In this document: piece by piece, positions 15,067 to 25,857 of the stretch | Position numbering within the stretch: the first letter of the stretch is position 1 | How the letters are laid out: each line of letters starts with the position of its first letter | Assembly: GCA_034530615.2 (NCBI GenBank) | Contig: JAVRCV020000065.1 | Span: forward strand, 64,001 to 128,000 | DNA from: Aulosira sp. ZfuVER01 | GTDB lineage: Bacteria > Cyanobacteriota > Cyanobacteriia > Cyanobacteriales > Nostocaceae | Length of the DNA stretch: 64,000 nucleotides | Direction: 5' to 3' | Made by a program: the position numbers and the translations under genes | The notes under the pieces: model-generated | Told to the model about the DNA's origin: nothing | What the model saw: the letters and a program-made list of their open reading frames with translations, nothing else | Database searches by the model: none

Positions 15067-15630
15067 CTAACTACCCATTTTTAACCAACCAAAAACTTGT
15101 TCGACAGTTAGTGCAAGTTCAATTTCTGGTAAGACTGGTAAAGAATCTTTTCCCTGGAGCAGTAATGGCTGTTGCTCTGGTAAAAATACTAAAATACTGA
15201 AGTCATCAGGGTCAAGAAACCATCCCAAGCGGCTACCATACTTCAGACAGTGCAGAATATTACCAATTACTTTATTAGGTTTTTGTTCTGGAGAGAGAAT
15301 TTCAATTGTCCAGTCTGGGGGAAGTTCAAAGTTATCAGGAACTTCTTCATCAACGGTGAATGGTATGCGAATCCACTGAAATACAGCCACATCGGGTACG
15401 ATGGAGCGTGAGCCAAAGCTACACCGTAATTCCGGAAACGCATAGGCAATTTTGCGATCCTCTGCAACTTGATTGACCGCAGCGCAGAGTTTACCTTGCA
15501 AGCGGCTGTGTCTCCCTTTGGGCATTGGCTTTTGAACGATCTCACCGTTAATATATTCGCTAGCAGGCTTGGTTTCTGGGATCTGAAGAAATTCTTCTAG
15601 AGTAAGGGGTTGGGCAGTTGTGGCGCTCAT
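15067..15630 (-). CDS. Uma2 (DUF820) family endonuclease-like protein
   Basis: TLEEFL, EYINGEIVQKPMP, VPDVAV, PDWTIEILSP. Confidence 0.9.
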   Translation of the reverse strand: MSATTAQPLTLEEFLQIPETKPASEYINGEIVQKPMPKGRHSRLQGKLCAAVNQVAEDRKIAYAFPELRCSFGSRSIVPDVAVFQWIRIPFTVDEEVPDNFELPPDWTIEILSPEQKPNKVIGNILHCLKYGSRLGWFLDPDDFSILVFLPEQQPLLLQGKDSLPVLPEIELALTVEQVFGWLKMGS

Positions 15631-15912: not shown

Positions 15913-16401
15913 TTAGCTACTCAAAAGTAATCTTTCTTGGTGATAGCTATTTCGGAGTTCCTCTAACTTTTCTGGATTAAAAGCAAATTGAATTAACTCA
16001 ACTAGTTGTTCCCAACTATGTAATATATCTTCGGAGTGAGCTTGCCAGAATTCATTGGCGAAAAATTCCGCCCACCATTGGGGTGCTTGCTTATTTTGCT
16101 GAGGTTCATTTTGCTTACGCCAGCGTCTACGCCATTTCACAAAGTCTGATTTATTAGGCGGCTCTACACCCAGAATTGGCGGAAAATCAGCATAGCTGAC
16201 AAACTTACTCACGCCTTTAGCGTGGACATAAACCATGTAACGCCAGCATTCGACTGTATATATATCTTCAAAATTGATTTGGCATATTAAGCAAATTGCC
16301 TCTTCTGTGACAAATCGCGCTAGTGGGTGAACAATTGCTGATTTGTGAACTATTTTCGATTCACGGATGACAAGCGCTTTTGGCTTGAGTGATGATAACA
16401 T
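15913..16401 (-). CDS. Hypothetical protein
   Basis: 162-aa ATG-started ORF with a Trp-rich C-terminal half, divergent from an XRE HTH gene. Confidence 0.7.
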   Translation of the reverse strand: MLSSLKPKALVIRESKIVHKSAIVHPLARFVTEEAICLICQINFEDIYTVECWRYMVYVHAKGVSKFVSYADFPPILGVEPPNKSDFVKWRRRWRKQNEPQQNKQAPQWWAEFFANEFWQAHSEDILHSWEQLVELIQFAFNPEKLEELRNSYHQERLLLSS

Positions 16402-16600: not shown

Positions 16601-16813
16601 ATGGGAATGGTTAGGCTCAAGATTCGAGAATTTGCTGCTGAGAAGGGCTGGACGCTGAAAGAGGTATCTGACCGTTCTGGTGTAGTTTATAGTACTCTCA
16701 GAACCTATGCGCGATCGCCTGGGCTAGCAACTGTAGATTTTACCGCAATTCAGAAGTTAGCACGAACTTTTGATGTGATGATTGAGGAATTGGTGGAAGT
16801 CGTGCAGGAATAA
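16601..16813 (+). CDS. XRE/Cro-like helix-turn-helix transcriptional regulator
   Basis: RLKIREFAAEKGWTLKEVSDRSGVVYSTL...KLARTFDVMIEELV, a typical small XRE fold. Confidence 0.85.
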   Translation: MGMVRLKIREFAAEKGWTLKEVSDRSGVVYSTLRTYARSPGLATVDFTAIQKLARTFDVMIEELVEVVQE

Positions 16814-16871: not shown

Positions 16872-17321
16872 TTAAGGCAACGGTGGAACCGCAAAGTCAT
16901 TAAAAGAGCAAACATCGTAAGAAGAATTGGCTAATGCCCTTACCAGCTTACCGTCAAGAGTGAGCAAAGTAGCGCTTACCTGTTGCGAAAGTGCAACATA
17001 AGAAGCATCGTAGGCGGAGATTCCATAAGTTAAGGCAATAGTAACCGCATCTACCATCAAGTCCGCTGTAGAGACAACATGTAATTGTAAACTCTTGAGA
17101 GTAGCTAAATCTGCTGTAACTTTGGCTGTAGGATAAAGACCAGCACGGATGTATTTCCACAAAACGTTAGCACTTTCAATGTAAAACAAATCAGGAACAA
17201 AGAATTGATTTTGAGAATTGGCAACGTGAGACAACAGTTGATCAACTTTAGAAGATATTGGATCTGGGACAAAGTGCTTGATACACACACTGACATCTAA
17301 GACACATCTAAGAGTAGTCAT
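16872..17321 (-). CDS. PIN-domain VapC-type toxin
   Basis: VLDVSV, VPDLFYIESANVLWK, SAYDASYVALS, LLTLDGKL acidic PIN residues. Confidence 0.88.
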   Translation of the reverse strand: MTTLRCVLDVSVCIKHFVPDPISSKVDQLLSHVANSQNQFFVPDLFYIESANVLWKYIRAGLYPTAKVTADLATLKSLQLHVVSTADLMVDAVTIALTYGISAYDASYVALSQQVSATLLTLDGKLVRALANSSYDVCSFNDFAVPPLP

Positions 17322-17584
17322 CTATCCCGGTCTTCTCGAAGCATAACAGTACTATCAGGCCATTCGATATCTTTAGGAAGCTTTTCACGACGCAGACGAC
17401 TTTCCTCTAAAAGCTTGAGTACATTCTTTCGCCTTTCGTCTTCCGTTTCCTGTGTCTTTGTTTCCAAGGCATTCTGCAATATTGTAATAACTTGAGCATC
17501 AACTGAGCTATTTTCAGCCTTAGCTAACTCTTGCAGTCGTTCGTATAATTCATCAGGTATATTTAGCGGATGAAGGGTAGCCAT
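17318..17584 (-). CDS. Ribbon-helix-helix (FitA/Arc-like) antitoxin
   Basis: MATLHPLNIPDELYERLQELAKAENSS; C-terminal DSTVMLREDRDR; GGAGG RBS before ATG 17584; 4-nt overlap with the PIN gene. Confidence 0.8.
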   Translation of the reverse strand: MATLHPLNIPDELYERLQELAKAENSSVDAQVITILQNALETKTQETEDERRKNVLKLLEESRLRREKLPKDIEWPDSTVMLREDRDR

Positions 17585-17698
17585 ATCTTGACCTCCCAAA
17601 AGAATTTATTGGTAATGGTAGCACGATACAAGCAAGGATAAGAAAGGAGAATAAAAGGCAATGGTTAGCAATAAGATAAGCCGCTTCTCAGCTTGCTA

Positions 17699-18730
17699 CT
17701 AAACATCCAAACTCAACGATGTTTCTATTAATGAAAATTGTTGTTTTTTTGGCTGCGTATCTTTTTTCTCTGGTAATAGCCCAGCAGCATACAGGATTGC
17801 AATTATAGACAACACTACCATTAGCACATATAAAATTATATTACTTGTAGATTCACCAGTTATTGGATATGGGTTTACAGGTGGTACTATCACTTGAGTA
17901 ATTGATGAATTAGATGCTGTTGAAAGTATATCTAAATCTCTTAGGATTTCTTCAACTGATTGATATCTTACCTGAGATTCGTAGCGAACCATTTTAGTCA
18001 AAATACTTGCTAACCAATCACTAACGTTTGCTTTATCTCGCCAGATAACCTCTCCTAAATTATCTATTGGCAAGGATTGGGGTTCTAAACCTGTGAGTGC
18101 TTCAATTACTGTCATTCCTAATGCATAAATATCACTGTTGGGTAGAGAATGTCCTCGCATTTGCTCTACTGGAGCATAACCCTGCGTATAAATTTGAGTT
18201 CCCGGTTGTTGTAGTCTAGTATTTTGAGCAATACCTTCTTTGACTGCACCAAAGTCAATTAGAAACAAATCATCATCCTTACTTAAAATGATATTATCTG
18301 GTTTGATATCACGATGGATAACATCATTTATATGTAAAAACGCAAGAATATTTATTAATTTATCTAATATTTTTATAACTTCAGGCTCTTCTAGCTTTTG
18401 CCGATATTTTATTTCTTGACTTAAAGTATTTCCCTGAATATATTGTTGAATAAAGTAAAACTCTTGATTTTCTTCCAGATATTCAAAAAACTTAGGAATA
18501 TGTGGATATCCATTTAACTTGTGGAGAACTGTTGCTTCGCGTTGGAATAGTTCTTGAGCTTTAGTAACCTCACTTTGATTATTACTAGAGAAAGTAAAAT
18601 GCTTAACTGCATACTGAACTCCAGACTGAAACAAGTCATTCGCTAGATAAGTTCTGCTAAAACCACCTTCCCCAAGCAATGCAACAATCTCGTAACGTCC
18701 GCTGATAATTTTTGATAGCCCTGTATTCAT
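17699..18730 (-). CDS. Hanks-type Ser/Thr protein kinase with C-terminal transmembrane helix
   Basis: LGEGGFSRTY, YAVK, HRDIKPDN, IDFG, GYAPVEQ, SDIYALG; hydrophobic IILYVLMVVLSIIAILYAAGLL near the C-terminus. Confidence 0.92.
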   Translation of the reverse strand: MNTGLSKIISGRYEIVALLGEGGFSRTYLANDLFQSGVQYAVKHFTFSSNNQSEVTKAQELFQREATVLHKLNGYPHIPKFFEYLEENQEFYFIQQYIQGNTLSQEIKYRQKLEEPEVIKILDKLINILAFLHINDVIHRDIKPDNIILSKDDDLFLIDFGAVKEGIAQNTRLQQPGTQIYTQGYAPVEQMRGHSLPNSDIYALGMTVIEALTGLEPQSLPIDNLGEVIWRDKANVSDWLASILTKMVRYESQVRYQSVEEILRDLDILSTASNSSITQVIVPPVNPYPITGESTSNIILYVLMVVLSIIAILYAAGLLPEKKDTQPKKQQFSLIETSLSLDV

Positions 18731-18924
18731 GTGACACCACCGTAGCAGAGATTGTCCCAAGCAATCTTTGTCAATTAGTAACCTAGGCTGAACTGAGAAG
18801 ATAATTGACTAATTGTATTTAACGTATTTTATACTACAACAAACATGGTATAGTTAATTTTACATACTTAGAAGTTTTATTACATATTTCTCATCTATTA
18901 ATAAATTTTTGAAGTTACCAAATT

Positions 18925-20337
18925 ATGAAACAACTTTCACTTCGTTATGGTGTATTTATAATTTGCTTTGCCTTATTCTTACTTTATTTAATTACACCAT
19001 CATTTATACCTTGGTTTCCTTTTTTAATAGTTCTAGCCTTTGTGGGATTAACTGTAAAATCTACTATTGACGGTATTAGGCTAAAGAAGGCTTTACTTCA
19101 ACAAATAGATATAATAGAGCAAAAAATTCAGACTGAACTTATTCAGAAAGTTAAAGGTATTAGTAAAAATCAATATGAGAAAATTAATAAAATAGCTTTA
19201 ATAGAAAAAAGATGTAGTGAAAATCAAGAATTAAAAATTTGGGAAAGACATAAGCGCTCTTATCAATTACTTCCCAACTCCCTGTTAGCTCTTGGCTTAC
19301 TGGGGACGTTCTTAGGTATTACAATGAATTTATTCTTAATAAGTAGAAATACTGGTGGTGAACTGCAATTACAAAAAGCCTTACCAGATATTATTGGTTC
19401 AATGGCGATCGCATTCGTCAGTAGCCTGGCTGCATTAGCGGGAAGTGTGTTTCTAACAAAGTTTCACCCTACTTATGATTTAGATTTAGAGAAGGATAAA
19501 CTGCTAATTTCGTTAGAAGATTACCTTGATAATGATTTTTTCCTCTCTCAGAACCAGCCAACTGTGGCAGAAAAAATTGATGTTCTGATCAAGTCTATAG
19601 ACAACTATTCTAAAAGCTTAAACACTTTTATTACAACTCTACCGAAAAATACTCAAGATTTTCAAAATGCTGTAACAGCAGCTTCTAATATATTAAATAC
19701 ATCTGCTAATAATTTTCAGGCTGTAGCAAATCAGTCTTCGCAGTCGATGCAGACAGGCGCTAATGTTTTAAGCAATGCTACTAACAACTTAGTCAGATTA
19801 ACAACAACTTTCTCTGATATCACATCTTCTCTGCGTGACTCGACAAAATCTTTCGACAAAGCGATAGATAAATTAGAAGACTATGCAGATAATCTGCAAG
19901 ATATTGGTAAGGCTTTGGTTAATAACTCTTCACAAATCCAGAGCTTAATTCAAAACAATCAACAAAACTTGAATCAAGTGAGCGATCGCCTGGTGCAAAA
20001 TGCTAATACACTGTCAGCAACTAGCCAATCTTTCAATAATCATGTATCGCAGCTAACAACATCTTTAAGTCAGCACACAGGACAAGTTGGCAACCACAAT
20101 AATAGATTGCAGAGTTTAGCTGGAGTCATTGAAAATACTACACAGTCTTCTAATACAAATATATCTCAAGTAGTATCAGTGTTAAATCAAAATGCGTCGC
20201 TAGTAAGCAACCAAATTAATCAATTACAAAATATAGCAGAGAACATTGATCGGAATGCTCAAACAATGAAGCAAATTCAGACTAATTTTTCTGATTTATT
20301 AAATGCATTAGTACAATTACAAAAAACTGGAGGATAG
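18925..20337 (+). CDS. ZorA-like / MotA-TolQ-ExbB-type membrane protein with long helical tail
   Basis: N-terminal TMs, LLALGLLGTFLGI and MAIAFVSSLAAL channel helices, then roughly 270 aa of N/Q/S/T-rich heptad tail. Confidence 0.75.
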   Translation: MKQLSLRYGVFIICFALFLLYLITPSFIPWFPFLIVLAFVGLTVKSTIDGIRLKKALLQQIDIIEQKIQTELIQKVKGISKNQYEKINKIALIEKRCSENQELKIWERHKRSYQLLPNSLLALGLLGTFLGITMNLFLISRNTGGELQLQKALPDIIGSMAIAFVSSLAALAGSVFLTKFHPTYDLDLEKDKLLISLEDYLDNDFFLSQNQPTVAEKIDVLIKSIDNYSKSLNTFITTLPKNTQDFQNAVTAASNILNTSANNFQAVANQSSQSMQTGANVLSNATNNLVRLTTTFSDITSSLRDSTKSFDKAIDKLEDYADNLQDIGKALVNNSSQIQSLIQNNQQNLNQVSDRLVQNANTLSATSQSFNNHVSQLTTSLSQHTGQVGNHNNRLQSLAGVIENTTQSSNTNISQVVSVLNQNASLVSNQINQLQNIAENIDRNAQTMKQIQTNFSDLLNALVQLQKTGG

Positions 20338-20358
20338 CCTCAATGGAGAAATCGCAAG

Positions 20359-21081
20359 ATGCGTAGAAGAACAAGAAGTTTACCGATGAATGATACTTTT
20401 AGCATCTGGACTTCTTTTACAGACTTAATGTCTAATGCTTTTATGATTATTACCTTGCTTTTATTATTAGTAATAGCTAGAAATTCCAAAAGTAATAATT
20501 CTCAGATATCAACTGGTGTAGATGATAAACCAACAATCATTGAATTGCCAGCAGAAAAATATAATTTTGATTCAGGTAGTGCAGTTTTACCGAATAATTT
20601 GAAAAATGATATTAGTCAGAATGGTAAAAATGGCATAATTTTAAAAGAAATTGAAAATAATATAAATAAAATTGAAAGTAGTAATAAAAAAGTTGATGTT
20701 ATAGAAGTTATTGGACATACCGACGGTGAAGAGGTTGGTTATTTAAAGTGTAGTAATCAAAGGGGTGGTAATTTAGATACAAAGCTAGAAGAAGTCGCTA
20801 CTCGTAATAAAGATGTTTCTATTCTTTGTCCAGGTTCTAATGCTGATTTAGGTTTAATGCGCGCCTTAGCAGTAGTTAAAGAACTGCAAAATGTGCAACG
20901 TCAAAAAAAATCAGGACTTTTCAAACGGCTAAAGTTTCGAGCCTATTCTGCGGCGCAACTACTTCTACCAGATGATCAAGGATTTGCGCCACCAAATAGA
21001 AGCAATAATCCCCAACGTCGGCGGATCGAAATTCGCTTCGCCCAACTGGGTCAGTATAAAACCCCAGGTAATAACCGCTAA
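20359..21081 (+). CDS. ZorB-like / MotB-OmpA-type protein
   Basis: WTSFTDLMS (conserved Asp) plus one TM, FDSGSA, IEVIGHTD, LGLMRALAV, RRRIEIRF OmpA-like motifs. Confidence 0.8.
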   Translation: MRRRTRSLPMNDTFSIWTSFTDLMSNAFMIITLLLLLVIARNSKSNNSQISTGVDDKPTIIELPAEKYNFDSGSAVLPNNLKNDISQNGKNGIILKEIENNINKIESSNKKVDVIEVIGHTDGEEVGYLKCSNQRGGNLDTKLEEVATRNKDVSILCPGSNADLGLMRALAVVKELQNVQRQKKSGLFKRLKFRAYSAAQLLLPDDQGFAPPNRSNNPQRRRIEIRFAQLGQYKTPGNNR

Positions 21082-21142
21082 TAATAATTAACCTTTGAAG
21101 CTACTTCAATTGGCTCCTGTAAAGTAAAAATATGAAATTATT

Positions 21143-21928
21143 TTACAACTGTTGTGATGTGTTAATAAAATATAATATTTCTTCTCGAGTGTAAGGAGGT
21201 TTACGCATATGAATCATAGCATGACAGTTAGGGCATACAGGACGTAAGTCTTTGATGGGATCAACTTCATATTCTTCTTTTATTTCTGATAGTGGCTTTA
21301 AGTGATGTATCTGTATAAAATCTTTACCGACATCACCATAAAATCTTGCAAAATTAAAGCCACAAATATAGCAACCTAAACCATGTGTAGCTAGGCATTT
21401 CTTACGTGCTTGAGAATTACGTTCATACGTATTAACCATAATTTGAGTAGTTGCACCCTCATAATATTTCTTTGGTTCAGTTACTTCTTCAGCAATCAAA
21501 AAAAGTTCTAACTTTCTTAAGTATCTAAAATTATTGAGAAACTGAGAGATATATTTTTTGGTTTTACCTTGACCGTACTTATATAAATAAAAACCCTCTT
21601 CTTTTTCTTTGATATGTAGCTTCCACTGATCACCATCAACAGTAGGGCAATCGCCCAACCAAAGTAATTCTTTAACAGGCAATACAAAAATTTTTTCGTC
21701 AGTGTCACAAATAAATAAAATAAATAAACCATCATCCTTAAACTTATCAAAATGTCCTTTGGTAATACCAAACCGAAATTCTTGCTTTGGCAAGCTCAAT
21801 TGTGAGTACCGAGGCATGACAAATTGATAATTCCATAACTTATAGATACTTCCACTTTCATGTTGATAATTCTGATCAAGCTCTCGTAAAACTTTTGTTT
21901 GATAGAATTCTGATCTTTCATTTCTCAT
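21143..21928 (-). CDS. HNH endonuclease, McrA-like
   Basis: YERNSQARKKCL, CYIC, IQIHHLKPLS, DLRPVCPNCHAMIH. Confidence 0.88.
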   Translation of the reverse strand: MRNERSEFYQTKVLRELDQNYQHESGSIYKLWNYQFVMPRYSQLSLPKQEFRFGITKGHFDKFKDDGLFILFICDTDEKIFVLPVKELLWLGDCPTVDGDQWKLHIKEKEEGFYLYKYGQGKTKKYISQFLNNFRYLRKLELFLIAEEVTEPKKYYEGATTQIMVNTYERNSQARKKCLATHGLGCYICGFNFARFYGDVGKDFIQIHHLKPLSEIKEEYEVDPIKDLRPVCPNCHAMIHMRKPPYTREEILYFINTSQQL

Positions 21929-22120
21929 ACATCAAGATGTGATATTAATTTTAGCTTTTATTGCATTATTATTGCAAATATAGCTCTATATAGCTACTGC
22001 TCATCTATCGCTCATTCTTAATTAAAATGATTCTCTGTATATGAGTATTACTGTTTTATAAATGATATTATAGGCAATTTATATGAAAGAAAAGGAAGTT
22101 AGTAATCAACTGGAAACAAA

Positions 22121-22156
22121 TTATTTAACTATTGTTTCTGTCCAGTAAACATTCAC
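22121..22156 (-). pseudogene. Truncated RelE/ParE-like toxin remnant
   Basis: GTG overlapping the upstream stop (GTGA) reads MNVYWTETIVK*, resembling a RelE/ParE N-terminus. Confidence 0.4.
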
Positions 22157-22344
22157 TCTGGTAGTCCAAATTTTTTCCGCACTTCTTGTACAGAAATTAC
22201 ATTACTAGCTTTGCTATCTTCAAACCCAGCTTCCACTGTTTGTCGTACATAAATTTGATACATCAAATCATCCCATGTGGAATTTTCTGGTAATCTGTCA
22301 ATTAATTTATGAGCTTCTTGTTTAATCTTGATATTTTTCATCAA
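22153..22344 (-). CDS. Small putative antitoxin (addiction-module type)
   Basis: KQEAHKLIDRLPENSTWDDLMYQIYVRQTVEAG..D...VISVQEVRKKF pattern of antitoxins that precede ParE/RelE toxins. Confidence 0.65.
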   Translation of the reverse strand: MMKNIKIKQEAHKLIDRLPENSTWDDLMYQIYVRQTVEAGFEDSKASNVISVQEVRKKFGLPE

Positions 22345-22473
22345 TAGTTAACCAAATACTATTCATACAGCTTTGGATATATTGTAGATGCAAAATAGAC
22401 GCGGCATTTCATCTCTACCTATCTTCTAGAAAGGAGGCTTCTGCACTTCTATTATTAACAAAAAATGATTCAA

Positions 22474-22558
22474 CGGAGAGGGGGAGATTCGAACTCCCGG
22501 AGGTTTTAGCCTCATCCGATTTCAAGTCGGACGCAATCGACCACTCTGCCACCTCTCC
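22474..22558 (-). tRNA. trnS-UGA: tRNA-Ser (anticodon UGA)
   Basis: Reverse complement GGAGAGGTGGCAGAGTGGTCGATTGCGTCCGAC-TTGAAA-TCGGATGAGGCTAAAACCTCCGGGAGTTCGAATCTCCCCCTCTCCG; long variable arm; no encoded CCA. Confidence 0.97.
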
Positions 22559-22647
22559 AGTAAACTGTCTAGCTTGTTGCTTACCTGCTAGGTAAACGCT
22601 TTCCTAAGTTAGCACAAAAGCAGACAGATAATACTATATCTCATCAT

Positions 22648-24888: not shown

Positions 24889-25305
24889 ATGATGGGCGCA
24901 GTGAGAGTGACAATCAGATTAAAAAATGCAGTTGATGAAGAATTAGTACGTCGCGGCTTACTAGCACCAAATTTACTCCGAGAATGTGAAGTTAAAGGAT
25001 TAGTAGATACAGGTGCAGTTTCTTTAGTAATTCCACTAGAGATGGTAGACCAACTGGGGGTAAGAATTTTAGGACAAAGAGTTGCGCAGTATGCAAATGG
25101 CAATCAAGAGAATATAGGTGTAACTGGCGCCATCATGATTGAATGTCAAGGACGTACAACAATTGATGAGGCGTTAGTTGTTGGTAATGAAGTATTAATT
25201 GGTCAGGTGATTTTAGAAAAATTGGATTTACTGGTGGATTGTAAAAATCAGATACTAATACCAAATCCGGCGAATCCTGATTATCCAGTAGCGATGATTA
25301 AATAA
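24889..25305 (+). CDS. Clan AA (retropepsin-like) aspartic protease
   Basis: GLVDTGA catalytic motif, YANG, VLIGQVILEKLDL. Confidence 0.85.
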   Translation: MMGAVRVTIRLKNAVDEELVRRGLLAPNLLRECEVKGLVDTGAVSLVIPLEMVDQLGVRILGQRVAQYANGNQENIGVTGAIMIECQGRTTIDEALVVGNEVLIGQVILEKLDLLVDCKNQILIPNPANPDYPVAMIK

Positions 25306-25308
25306 AGT

Positions 25309-25662
25309 TTAATCTAGGGTTTGTAGTAACTGCTTAATTTCTGCAAGTAATACAGTCGGTTCAAAAACTCGCTCTTTGGCTATTAAACTATCATAAATAT
25401 CTTCCCAAATTTCACCGTGTTCTTCCAAATCAAGTAAAACTGCGGTTTTTTTACCCTGTTCATCGATTAAAAATTGAACTGTCAACGGCATTTCTATCTC
25501 TTCTTCCACCGCTGTCCACAGTTCGCCATGTTCTTTTAAGTCAATTAATACAGCAGTATTGTTCCCAAGAAAATTCTTCAGAAATTGGACACCGGAAATT
25601 TGTGTTTCTAAGCCGGAAACTGCTTGATCCTGATTCTCGGTTAAATCCTGAGTAGGCTGCAT
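25309..25662 (-). CDS. Hypothetical protein with duplicated antitoxin-like module
   Basis: Two copies of VQFL.....G..TAVL.DL.EHGE.W. Confidence 0.7.
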   Translation of the reverse strand: MQPTQDLTENQDQAVSGLETQISGVQFLKNFLGNNTAVLIDLKEHGELWTAVEEEIEMPLTVQFLIDEQGKKTAVLLDLEEHGEIWEDIYDSLIAKERVFEPTVLLAEIKQLLQTLD

Positions 25663-25857
25663 ACTATCCTGCAAGTCAAAGATATTCTTAAAACCTATCG
25701 TATATCTGAAATTTGTTGCTTGATTCAGAAGAAAGCGATCGCCATTTTTTTTCTAATACTTTGTCCAGCTATAGCAATTTTCTCTGCGCTTTCTGCGCCT
25801 CTGTGGTTCGATTTTCATAGATGGGGAAATTTAATTCCCCATCTCTATATGATTCCA

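Follow-up and report, generated by a model that had tools for sequence, protein, structure and literature searches.

A gene for a membrane Ser/Thr kinase lies head-to-head with a ZorA/ZorB-like motor gene pair in the window, the 64,000 nucleotide stretch of DNA analysed here, which poses the question of whether the three genes act together and in which direction a signal might pass between them. The kinase (343 aa, 17699..18730, reverse strand, Pfam Pkinase E 1e-36) consists of a kinase domain at about residues 11-272, a disordered linker, one transmembrane (TM) helix at about 298-316 and an outside tail of 26 residues, and its predicted model has a pLDDT of 79.6. The original prediction described a complete Hanks kinase with a single C-terminal TM and a short tail and this description holds in full, as the catalytic motifs (G20xG22, K43, E65, H139-R140-D141, K143, N146 and D159FG) cover the Gly loop, VAIK lysine, alphaC glutamate, HRD, DFG and APE elements by which Hanks kinases are recognised. 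Translation starts at an ATG at 18730 that is common to its relatives, 10 codons downstream of the TTG at 18760 used by the ORF caller, and with the ZorA-like gene starting at the ATG at 18925 the two genes are divergent and 194 bp apart, close to the 195 bp first estimated. A short outside tail (17-44 aa) is found in 36/37 motor-linked kinases, and 10 of the 37 carry HRDIN in place of HRDIK, a variant that may lower kinase activity. The PADLOC PD-T4-6 model PDLC04045 scores 395 bits on the window kinase, which ranks third among 52 matching kinases of the same genome; as it matches so many and two outscore the window kinase the model is generic and we dropped the label.

The ZorA/MotA-like rotor subunit (470 aa, 18925..20337, forward strand) matches PADLOC ZorA with an E of 3e-12, and its best PDB sequence matches are the ZorA chains of 8qyd and 8vvn (E 2e-11 and 4e-11). 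It has an N-terminal hydrophobic hairpin, TM segments at 115-140 and 152-180 with P117, T128 and S167, and a heptad-patterned tail of about 265 aa rich in S/T/N/Q, which a model of low confidence (pLDDT 64.5) shows as a helix. The ZorB/MotB-like stator subunit (240 aa, 20359..21081, forward strand; PADLOC ZorB E 2e-7, best PDB match 8vvn_B with E 2e-7) has a TM carrying D22 and an OmpA-like peptidoglycan-binding domain with N161, L164 and R168. All three genes are under purifying selection, with dN/dS values of 0.26 for the kinase (against 14 congeners) and 0.115 and 0.128 for the ZorA-like and ZorB-like genes. The kinase and ZorA-like genes had been described as similarly AT-rich and their GC contents are indeed 0.340 and 0.332 against a genome mean of 0.413, with 0.342 for the ZorB-like gene, which puts the trio among the 2-3% of the genome's 3908 long ORFs with the lowest GC and makes the kinase the most AT-rich of 42 kinase matches. 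This AT-richness is common to tubulin-linked motors (ZorA GC 0.328 vs 0.326).

Zorya types I-III share a ZorAB core (PMC11946911, PMC11890865, PMC8565338), and in common with them the window has a MotA/MotB-type pair, a long helical A tail and an OmpA-like B domain. By alignment and spacing the functional residues of E. coli ZorAB are conserved, with D22 corresponding to D26, P117/T128 to P136/T147 and S167 to S184, while the peptidoglycan-binding residues N161/L164/R168 correspond to N152/L155/R159 and are invariant and equally spaced, with S160 at the position of Y151. The calcium site of ZorA (E86, E89 and D217 in E. coli) is not evidently kept; E198/D202/N203 are conserved where the last TM helix ends, and E86/E89 lack a clear counterpart in the ZorA-like family, which has invariant N88 and A91 there instead. 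Further differences are the shorter ZorA tail, a partner gene that encodes a membrane kinase and lies on the other strand, a defensive role that is only putative for the module, and NCBIfam scores far below cut-off for the ZorA models (26.2, 23.8 and 17.5 bits against 250, 190 and 500), with no match of the ZorB-like protein to the NCBIfam ZorB models. The original prediction recognised none of ZorC/D/F/G here and our searches agree: neither PADLOC nor NCBIfam matched zorC or zorD (type I) among the neighbours, no zorE (type II) co-transcribed after zorB was found at the window locus, and zorF (DUF3348) and zorG (DUF2894) of type III were not found in the genome. The EH_Signature domain, which we take to be linked to ZorC, was likewise not found in the genome; these genome-wide Pfam searches covered ZorC-, ZorF- and ZorG-type domains, two of the three (EH_Signature and DUF3348) without a positive control, and ZorD was sought among neighbours only. 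On gene content and sequence scores the module is not a member of Zorya types I-III.

The motor is also not closest to Zorya proper, with which the original prediction compared it, but to the B7 and COG1360 motor of the cyanobacterial vWA-FtsZl1-B7-COG1360 operon, which that prediction does not mention and of which Ava_1847-1850 is an example in Makarova and Koonin 2010 (PMC2875224 and its supplement 5). The motor family is usually located in such vWA-FtsZl1 (tubulin-like) operons, a Tubulin_2 gene preceding the A and B genes in 64/144 classified motor loci with sizes as in that paper; B7 was recognised by gene order and gene sizes rather than by aligning Ava_1849. Motors of this operon are 23-33% (A) and 36-48% (B) identical to the window proteins, and the clade of the window differs in carrying a kinase and in having vWA and FtsZl1 neither at the locus nor mostly in the genome; in the window's own genome, which is 99.99% complete, Tubulin_2 and vWA genes of this kind are absent from locus and genome alike. 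The same paper counts kinases among the genes often found in FtsZl1 operons; none appears in the cyanobacterial rows of parts 1-2 of 4 of its supplement 5. An earlier published example of a motor pair that shares its locus with a Ser/Thr kinase is DR_0538-DR_0534 of Deinococcus radiodurans (FtsZl1, MotA/TolQ/ExbB, OmpA, LRR and Ser/Thr kinase), listed in supplement 5; compared by description only, it differs in that its genes form one operon read in a single direction, include a tubulin-like and an LRR gene, and encode a kinase of 700 aa.

In order to place the kinase-motor pairing we surveyed relatives of the motor, which occur in 124/301 genomes of the window's family and 154/401 sampled genomes of its order. 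The kinase is present at 37/38 loci of one motor clade, delimited by the ZorA and ZorB trees and forming a separate branch with a support of 100 on the former, and at 0/106 loci outside it; the original proposal, which was to fall if the kinase proved unlinked to ZorAB homologues elsewhere, therefore stands on this point and we regard the linkage itself as highly probable. The 37 motor-linked kinases group in a single clade with a support of 96 that excludes 41 own-genome paralogues, the trio is retained across 14 genera, and kinase distances correlate with those of ZorA (rho 0.80) and ZorB (rho 0.82) over 20 loci such that the trees mirror each other. This match is explained by shared descent, because the association arose once, and the only evidence independent of descent comes from moves between sites, one re-orientation and the genome G160. 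In the latter the kinase and ZorA both reject grouping with their own genus (AU p 5e-5 and 6e-39), an apparent joint transfer of kinase and motor in an assembly that is fragmented and possibly mis-binned.

A single origin, together with a head-to-head layout unchanged in 36/37 cases, would also fit a kinase gene that landed beside the motor once and has stayed there because the two share a divergent promoter, with no functional link, the more so as a chance kinase neighbour is easily acquired in a genome with more than 40 kinase paralogues and as either side can be lost (the motor stands without the kinase in G148, the kinase beside broken motor genes in G085, and G064 has also lost one side). 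We think this very improbable since all other neighbours have been swapped, giving at least 8 trio neighbourhoods without a common flank, as identity dropped to 38-47%, since G117 retained the kinase in convergent orientation behind zorB after the shared promoter was lost, and since the best 32 kinase matches falling in the clade all adjoin a motor. No further gene is common to the 38 clade loci and a tubulin-like gene is absent from 27/37 family genomes of the kinase clade, which leaves the kinase as the only candidate output of the motor. The ZorA clade has five deeper members (P0008, P0009, P0011, P0012 and P0013), whose gene context we sought more widely: strong matches in an order-wide search were restricted to the window's family (7/401), a scan of genomes with P0013 found nothing, and among the metagenome matches listed, which include none of the five, 0/70 loci carry this kinase. 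A plasmid search gave no match and a viral search gave one weak ZorB-like locus.

The genes around the module differ between genomes. An HNH nuclease gene absent from the original prediction (21143..21928, reverse strand; Pfam HNH, PADLOC mREase_IV and Csx26) lies 61 bp past zorB in convergent orientation, followed by a tRNA-Ser(TGA) gene found with ARAGORN (22473..22559, reverse strand) whose 3' end faces the module and which is probably an integration site and defence hotspot. The slot between zorB and the tRNA holds other genes in G006 and in 13 congeners, those with the tRNA inside the fetched stretch, with matches to DRT UG35, PD-T4-4-like, PDC-M09A, PDC-M34B and others, and it is empty in G010, G031 and G161, where the zorB end lies 26 bp (G031) or 32 bp (G161) from the tRNA. 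Within the genus the module adjoins a slot filled with defence genes; in other genera housekeeping genes flank most of its sites. As ZorAB is stated not to confer defence on its own (PMC8565338), the motor's effector might be encoded elsewhere or be the changing slot cargo, here HNH as a stand-in for ZorE, with the kinase a co-regulated accessory; several congener cargo genes encode nucleases or NTPases, and some of them are read in the same direction as zorB. We rejected the HNH gene as ZorE and treat it as strain-specific cargo rather than a module member, as it is convergent, has no ZorE match in PADLOC and occurs in 1/15 genomes of the genus, and with empty slots and the ZorC-, ZorF- and ZorG-type searches above returning nothing from the genome a separate effector seems improbable. 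Downstream of the kinase gene, an RHH antitoxin gene paired with a PIN toxin gene (16872..17599, reverse strand; Pfam PIN, FitA-like RHH) is a neighbour in most congeners, but most kinase-linked loci of other genera lack it; this pair and a 162-aa ORF were rejected as module members because neither occurs beyond a single chromosomal site.

The predicted Ser/Thr-rich tail of the ZorA-like protein proved to be a trait of the clade. The window tail has 21% Ser+Thr against a background of 12%, and kinase-clade tails have 22.8% (20.5-28.7, n=33) compared with 15.0% (12.1-20.4, n=60) in tubulin-linked motors, a comparison that amounts to a single phylogenetic contrast. Acidic residues are about half as frequent (6.7% vs 12.7%), and 15 tail S/T positions are retained in at least 80% of 23 rows. 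These figures feed the main rival to the explanation preferred below, in which the kinase acts upstream and phosphorylates the uncharged Ser/Thr-rich tail in order to switch, stiffen or disassemble the motor, the output being mechanical, through remodelling of the envelope or cytoskeleton like that suggested for FtsZl1 operons, and defence not being a necessary part of it. The frequency of kinases in FtsZl1 operons noted above suits such a role, as does the module's presence at a single site in 15/15 genomes of the genus, a more stable pattern than defence genes usually show. Yet the tails of kinase-less orphan motors reach 18.8% S+T (13-23%) and those of PhoH-linked motors 19.7%, and the motor would be left without an identified output and the sensor-less kinase without an input, so that we consider this order of events rather unlikely.

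Of the two mechanisms raised by the original prediction we tentatively prefer the one in which envelope damage is sensed by the motor and relayed through the kinase as output, so that the three genes would form a sensor-and-output module. Five ZorA-like and two ZorB-like copies would form an ion-driven rotary inner-membrane motor, anchored to peptidoglycan and extending a coiled tail some 40 nm long into the cytoplasm; by analogy, the 5:2 assembly, rotation and wall binding are carried over from what is described for E. coli ZorAB in PMC11946911. Damage to the envelope, for instance when a phage penetrates it, would engage the motor, as in Zorya, and the engaged motor would gather or release the kinase, which has no outside sensor domain and whose single TM would hold it in the membrane of the motor, leading to trans-autophosphorylation with T178/T182 as likely sites. 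Active kinase could then phosphorylate the tail and host targets, bringing about growth arrest or an envelope-stress response. We infer the kinase-motor contact, the direction of the signal, its trigger and the phenotype; a complex prediction with three ZorA(1-215) chains and the kinase scored 0.00 and speaks neither for nor against contact.

To our knowledge the outputs of Zorya are soluble nucleases. Kinase-based defences include Stk2, KKP (PMC11341870) and PD-T4-6, with which the module would share a Hanks kinase as a possible abortive output; none of these three is known to include a rotary motor. An anti-phage role of the module is possible, if somewhat less than evenly balanced. Doubtful, though conceivable, is a new anti-phage type in which the motor turns envelope penetration directly into membrane-kinase activation and cyanobacterial ZorAB-like motors more broadly serve as a sensing platform whose outputs can be swapped (tubulin-like GTPase with vWA, TerY phosphorylation triad, or lone kinase). 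Where the kinase is the only partner motor activity would gain a direct read-out, phosphorylation, which bears on tail signalling in Zorya, and an input would be found for one of the numerous cyanobacterial Ser/Thr kinases that are orphans. The survey also ties the sensor of Zorya to the uncharacterised FtsZl1 operon, a tie that, like the kinase-motor trio, was not found in a literature search largely outside subscription papers and bioRxiv supplements.

The divergent intergenic region (18731..18924, 194 bp, 29% GC) contains an AT-rich core near 18828-18860 that is partly conserved in an alignment of 13 loci and is a candidate shared promoter. Promoter function is only inferred because a consensus scan of the intergenic regions gave 18 sites against 21.7 in shuffles, which is chance level. 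The module of a relative (query L160) is present in four RNA runs of one study (share 0.21), in contigs that between them include all three genes; as the long contigs span both strands DNA carry-over is possible. In run X1 the contigs break inside the intergenic region, a weak hint only.

The kinase and motor genes lie in an 8.0-Mb, 41% GC genome whose near relatives are recorded as Nostoc, Calothrix, Tolypothrix and Aulosira. As originally predicted, a kinase with the full set of Hanks motifs, a single transmembrane (TM) segment and a 26-aa tail (17699-18730, minus strand) diverges from a ZorA-like gene (A; 18925-20337, plus strand), the starts being 194 bp apart, and a ZorB-like gene (B; 20359-21081, plus strand) is co-directional with A. 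The similar AT-richness predicted for the kinase and A was confirmed, each of the three genes having a GC content of 33-34% that places it in the bottom 2-3% of the genome's long ORFs, and the kinase has the lowest GC among the genome's 42 kinase matches. Against 14 congeners (other genomes of the genus), dN/dS values of 0.26 (kinase), 0.115 (A) and 0.128 (B) indicate purifying selection on all three. An RHH-PIN toxin-antitoxin pair (16872-17599, minus strand) adjoins the module, and a Uma2 endonuclease gene (15067-15630, minus strand) lies beside it. A 162-aa protein (15913-16401, minus strand; dN/dS 0.16), kept in 14/14 congeners and in genome G031, had zero Pfam, PADLOC and NCBIfam matches, and its Atlas neighbours are unnamed cyanobacterial clusters; a Cro-like HTH gene (16601-16813, plus strand) is divergent to it. 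Small unannotated ORFs occur at 24889-25305 and 25309-25674.

The motor pair matched the PADLOC models for ZorA (E 3e-12) and ZorB (E 2e-7), with NCBIfam scores far below cut-off, and in profile searches the top solved-structure matches were ZorA (8qyd, 8vvn) for the A family and 8vvn_B for the B family. Residues given as essential in PMC11946911 have equivalents here: D26 of ZorB corresponds to D22, P136/T147/S184 of ZorA to P117/T128/S167, and the peptidoglycan-binding N152/L155/R159 of ZorB to N161/L164/R168. The ZorB Y151 position is a serine in B, and no clear match to the ZorA calcium ligands E86/E89 was found in A. By homology, the motor would work like the Zorya sensor. Past residue ~205 the A tail has a heptad pattern, and a low-confidence model shows it as helical; assuming 0.15 nm per residue, we estimate its length at about 40 nm.

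The B gene was present in 35/61 relatives and 124/301 genomes of the family, and A-like genes in 154/401 genomes of the order. We classified 144 loci after removing ten duplicates. Tubulin_2 lay upstream of the motor pair in 64, mostly with a vWA-like gene ahead of it; this kinase was found within 1 kb in 36, a vWA/PP2C/kinase triad 3' of the motor in 4, phoH ahead of 5 and another vWA gene ahead of 3, leaving 32 orphans with none of these partners. In the 33 of 124 family genomes that contributed no fetched locus, coordinates place Tubulin_2 within about 6 kb of B in 30, and none appeared among the kinase-search matches. Nine fragmentary loci excluded from the count showed no kinase, although one of them, the clade-type G195, is cut off by the end of its contig and could not be judged. 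In gene order and gene sizes, the tubulin-linked form matches the vWA-FtsZl1-B7-COG1360 operon, proposed in PMC2875224 to remodel membranes. This operon (locus L040 and 63 further loci) is common and usually intact, and its A subunit matches PADLOC ZorA models (E 4e-16), which links the sensor of Zorya with a tubulin-like GTPase; no such link was found in print. Four distant motor pairs (L091, L092, L095, L096) are followed by a vWA/PP2C/kinase-GUN4 triad, which we take to be TerY-phosphorylation-like, and which is a second, independent coupling of the motor family to protein phosphorylation; upstream of it, L091 additionally has a Band_7-vWA gene encoding 1404 aa. In L089, L090 and L134 the pair comes after genes for a DnaJ-domain and a vWA_4 protein, and phoH lies directly upstream of short-tailed pairs in L046, L047, L050, L199 and L203.

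The kinase-motor trio is a real, conserved module. Using motor trees alone, without the kinase, we defined a motor clade of 38/144 loci (36/131 rows of the B tree, support 94; a long-stemmed branch of the A tree, support 100). The kinase sits beside the motor in 36 of the 38; in G160 it adjoins A and the contig stops before B, so that the predicted co-occurrence with ZorAB homologues elsewhere held in 37/38, and in G148 it is reduced to a 65-codon remnant. Outside the clade this kinase was within 1 kb of the motor in 0/106 loci; an unrelated kinase of 612 aa lies four genes from the motor in G171, and one neighbour in G198 is weakly kinase-like. A reverse search of 301 genomes gave 34 kinase matches at E <=1e-72, of which 32 lie beside a motor and two are unlinked sister proteins with longer tails; further unlinked copies may have been missed because scoring was limited to 7 candidates per genome. 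Together, the 37 linked kinases make up a single clade separate from 41 own-genome paralogues (FastTree, support 96). The trio occurs in 14 of the family's genus codes and also in a record labelled Microcystaceae (L176). Ten linked kinases (L070, L072, L074, L075, L076, L078, L079, L080, L082, L093) have HRDIN instead of HRDIK, and in nine of these ten an insertion follows DFG.

The association has a single origin, and the match between kinase and motor trees (rho 0.80-0.82, 20 loci) is therefore largely descent. Three observations go beyond this. Flanks of trio loci fall into at least 8 groups with nothing in common within 5 kb. In G117 the kinase is convergent, behind zorB, so adjacency has outlasted the putative shared promoter. 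In G160 the nearest matches of kinase, A and B are all outside its own genus, and grouping with the three other genomes of that genus was rejected (kinase p 5e-5, A p 6e-39), for a group picked post hoc from the tree and a fragmented assembly. The G148 remnant, an intact kinase beside broken A and B in G085, a split B in G185 and a stop codon ahead of the kinase TM in G064 speak against strict dependence of kinase and motor. In a Richelia intracellularis record (L177) A and B are in pieces and the kinase frame is open.

Tubulin_2 was absent from this genome, 12/14 congeners and 27/37 family genomes of the kinase clade. Kinase-clade and tubulin-clade motors co-occur in four genomes (G086, G122, G148, G157) and are therefore paralogous modules. 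The Ser/Thr-rich tail of the original prediction was borne out as composition, kinase-clade tails having 22.8% Ser/Thr (20.5-28.7, n=33) and fewer acidic residues, whereas tubulin-clade tails have 15.0% (12.1-20.4, n=60); orphan (18.8%) and phoH-linked (19.7%) tails are intermediate. The main rival, that the kinase controls the A tail, appears less likely than the reading preferred here. We tentatively favour signalling from the motor to the membrane kinase upon envelope damage, with putative contact and direction, because a sensor-less kinase must receive an input, a motor of Zorya-like type must act on some output and a fourth common gene is absent. The two could also be combined as a loop. 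Stk2 is a kinase-based defence system for comparison.

The module falls outside Zorya types I-III as defined in PMC8565338 and PMC11890865, and its motor is a derived offshoot of the one found in FtsZl1 operons. PMC2875224 describes kinases as frequent in FtsZl1-type operons, and its listing includes a Deinococcus locus where a motor and a kinase occur together; the motor-kinase theme thus has precedent. The module is unmentioned in the available text of PMC12505986, PMC7159879 and PMC12204202, and we did not find the trio described in the literature searched, although supplements of Zorya surveys might list it; it is the module that was not found described before, the theme itself being already known.

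In the window's genus the module adjoins tRNA-Ser(TGA), where a slot faces the tRNA 3' end (21082-22472). Across the 14 congeners (L021-L031, L056-L058) the cargo differs from nearly every genome to the next and is of about ten kinds, including DRT UG35 (L057), GmrSD-HNH (L021), NACHT (L025, L028), an IrrE-like and PIN-like pair (L026, L027), PDC-M09A (L029), AAA15 (L030) and DUF6884 (L024) pairs, HEPN_Swt1 (L056) and a PD-T4-4-like gene; it is empty in G010, G031 and G161. The slot is a probable defence hotspot and its unlabelled genes are defence candidates. The window's HNH gene was rejected as ZorE, being one passenger of this variable slot. The module itself is present in 15/15 genomes of the genus, which is steady for a defence gene. 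Its scattered distribution outside the genus, its repeated decay and its low GC are compatible with defence, short of proof, and tubulin-linked motors are equally AT-rich. Most remaining module sites have ordinary neighbours, several labels being read from the sequence. Downstream of the kinase, five genomes with three different genus codes (L032, L033, L071, L084, L085) carry a gene for a nuclease-helicase-like protein of 724 aa (UvrD_C_2; PADLOC Helicase, E 1e-83).
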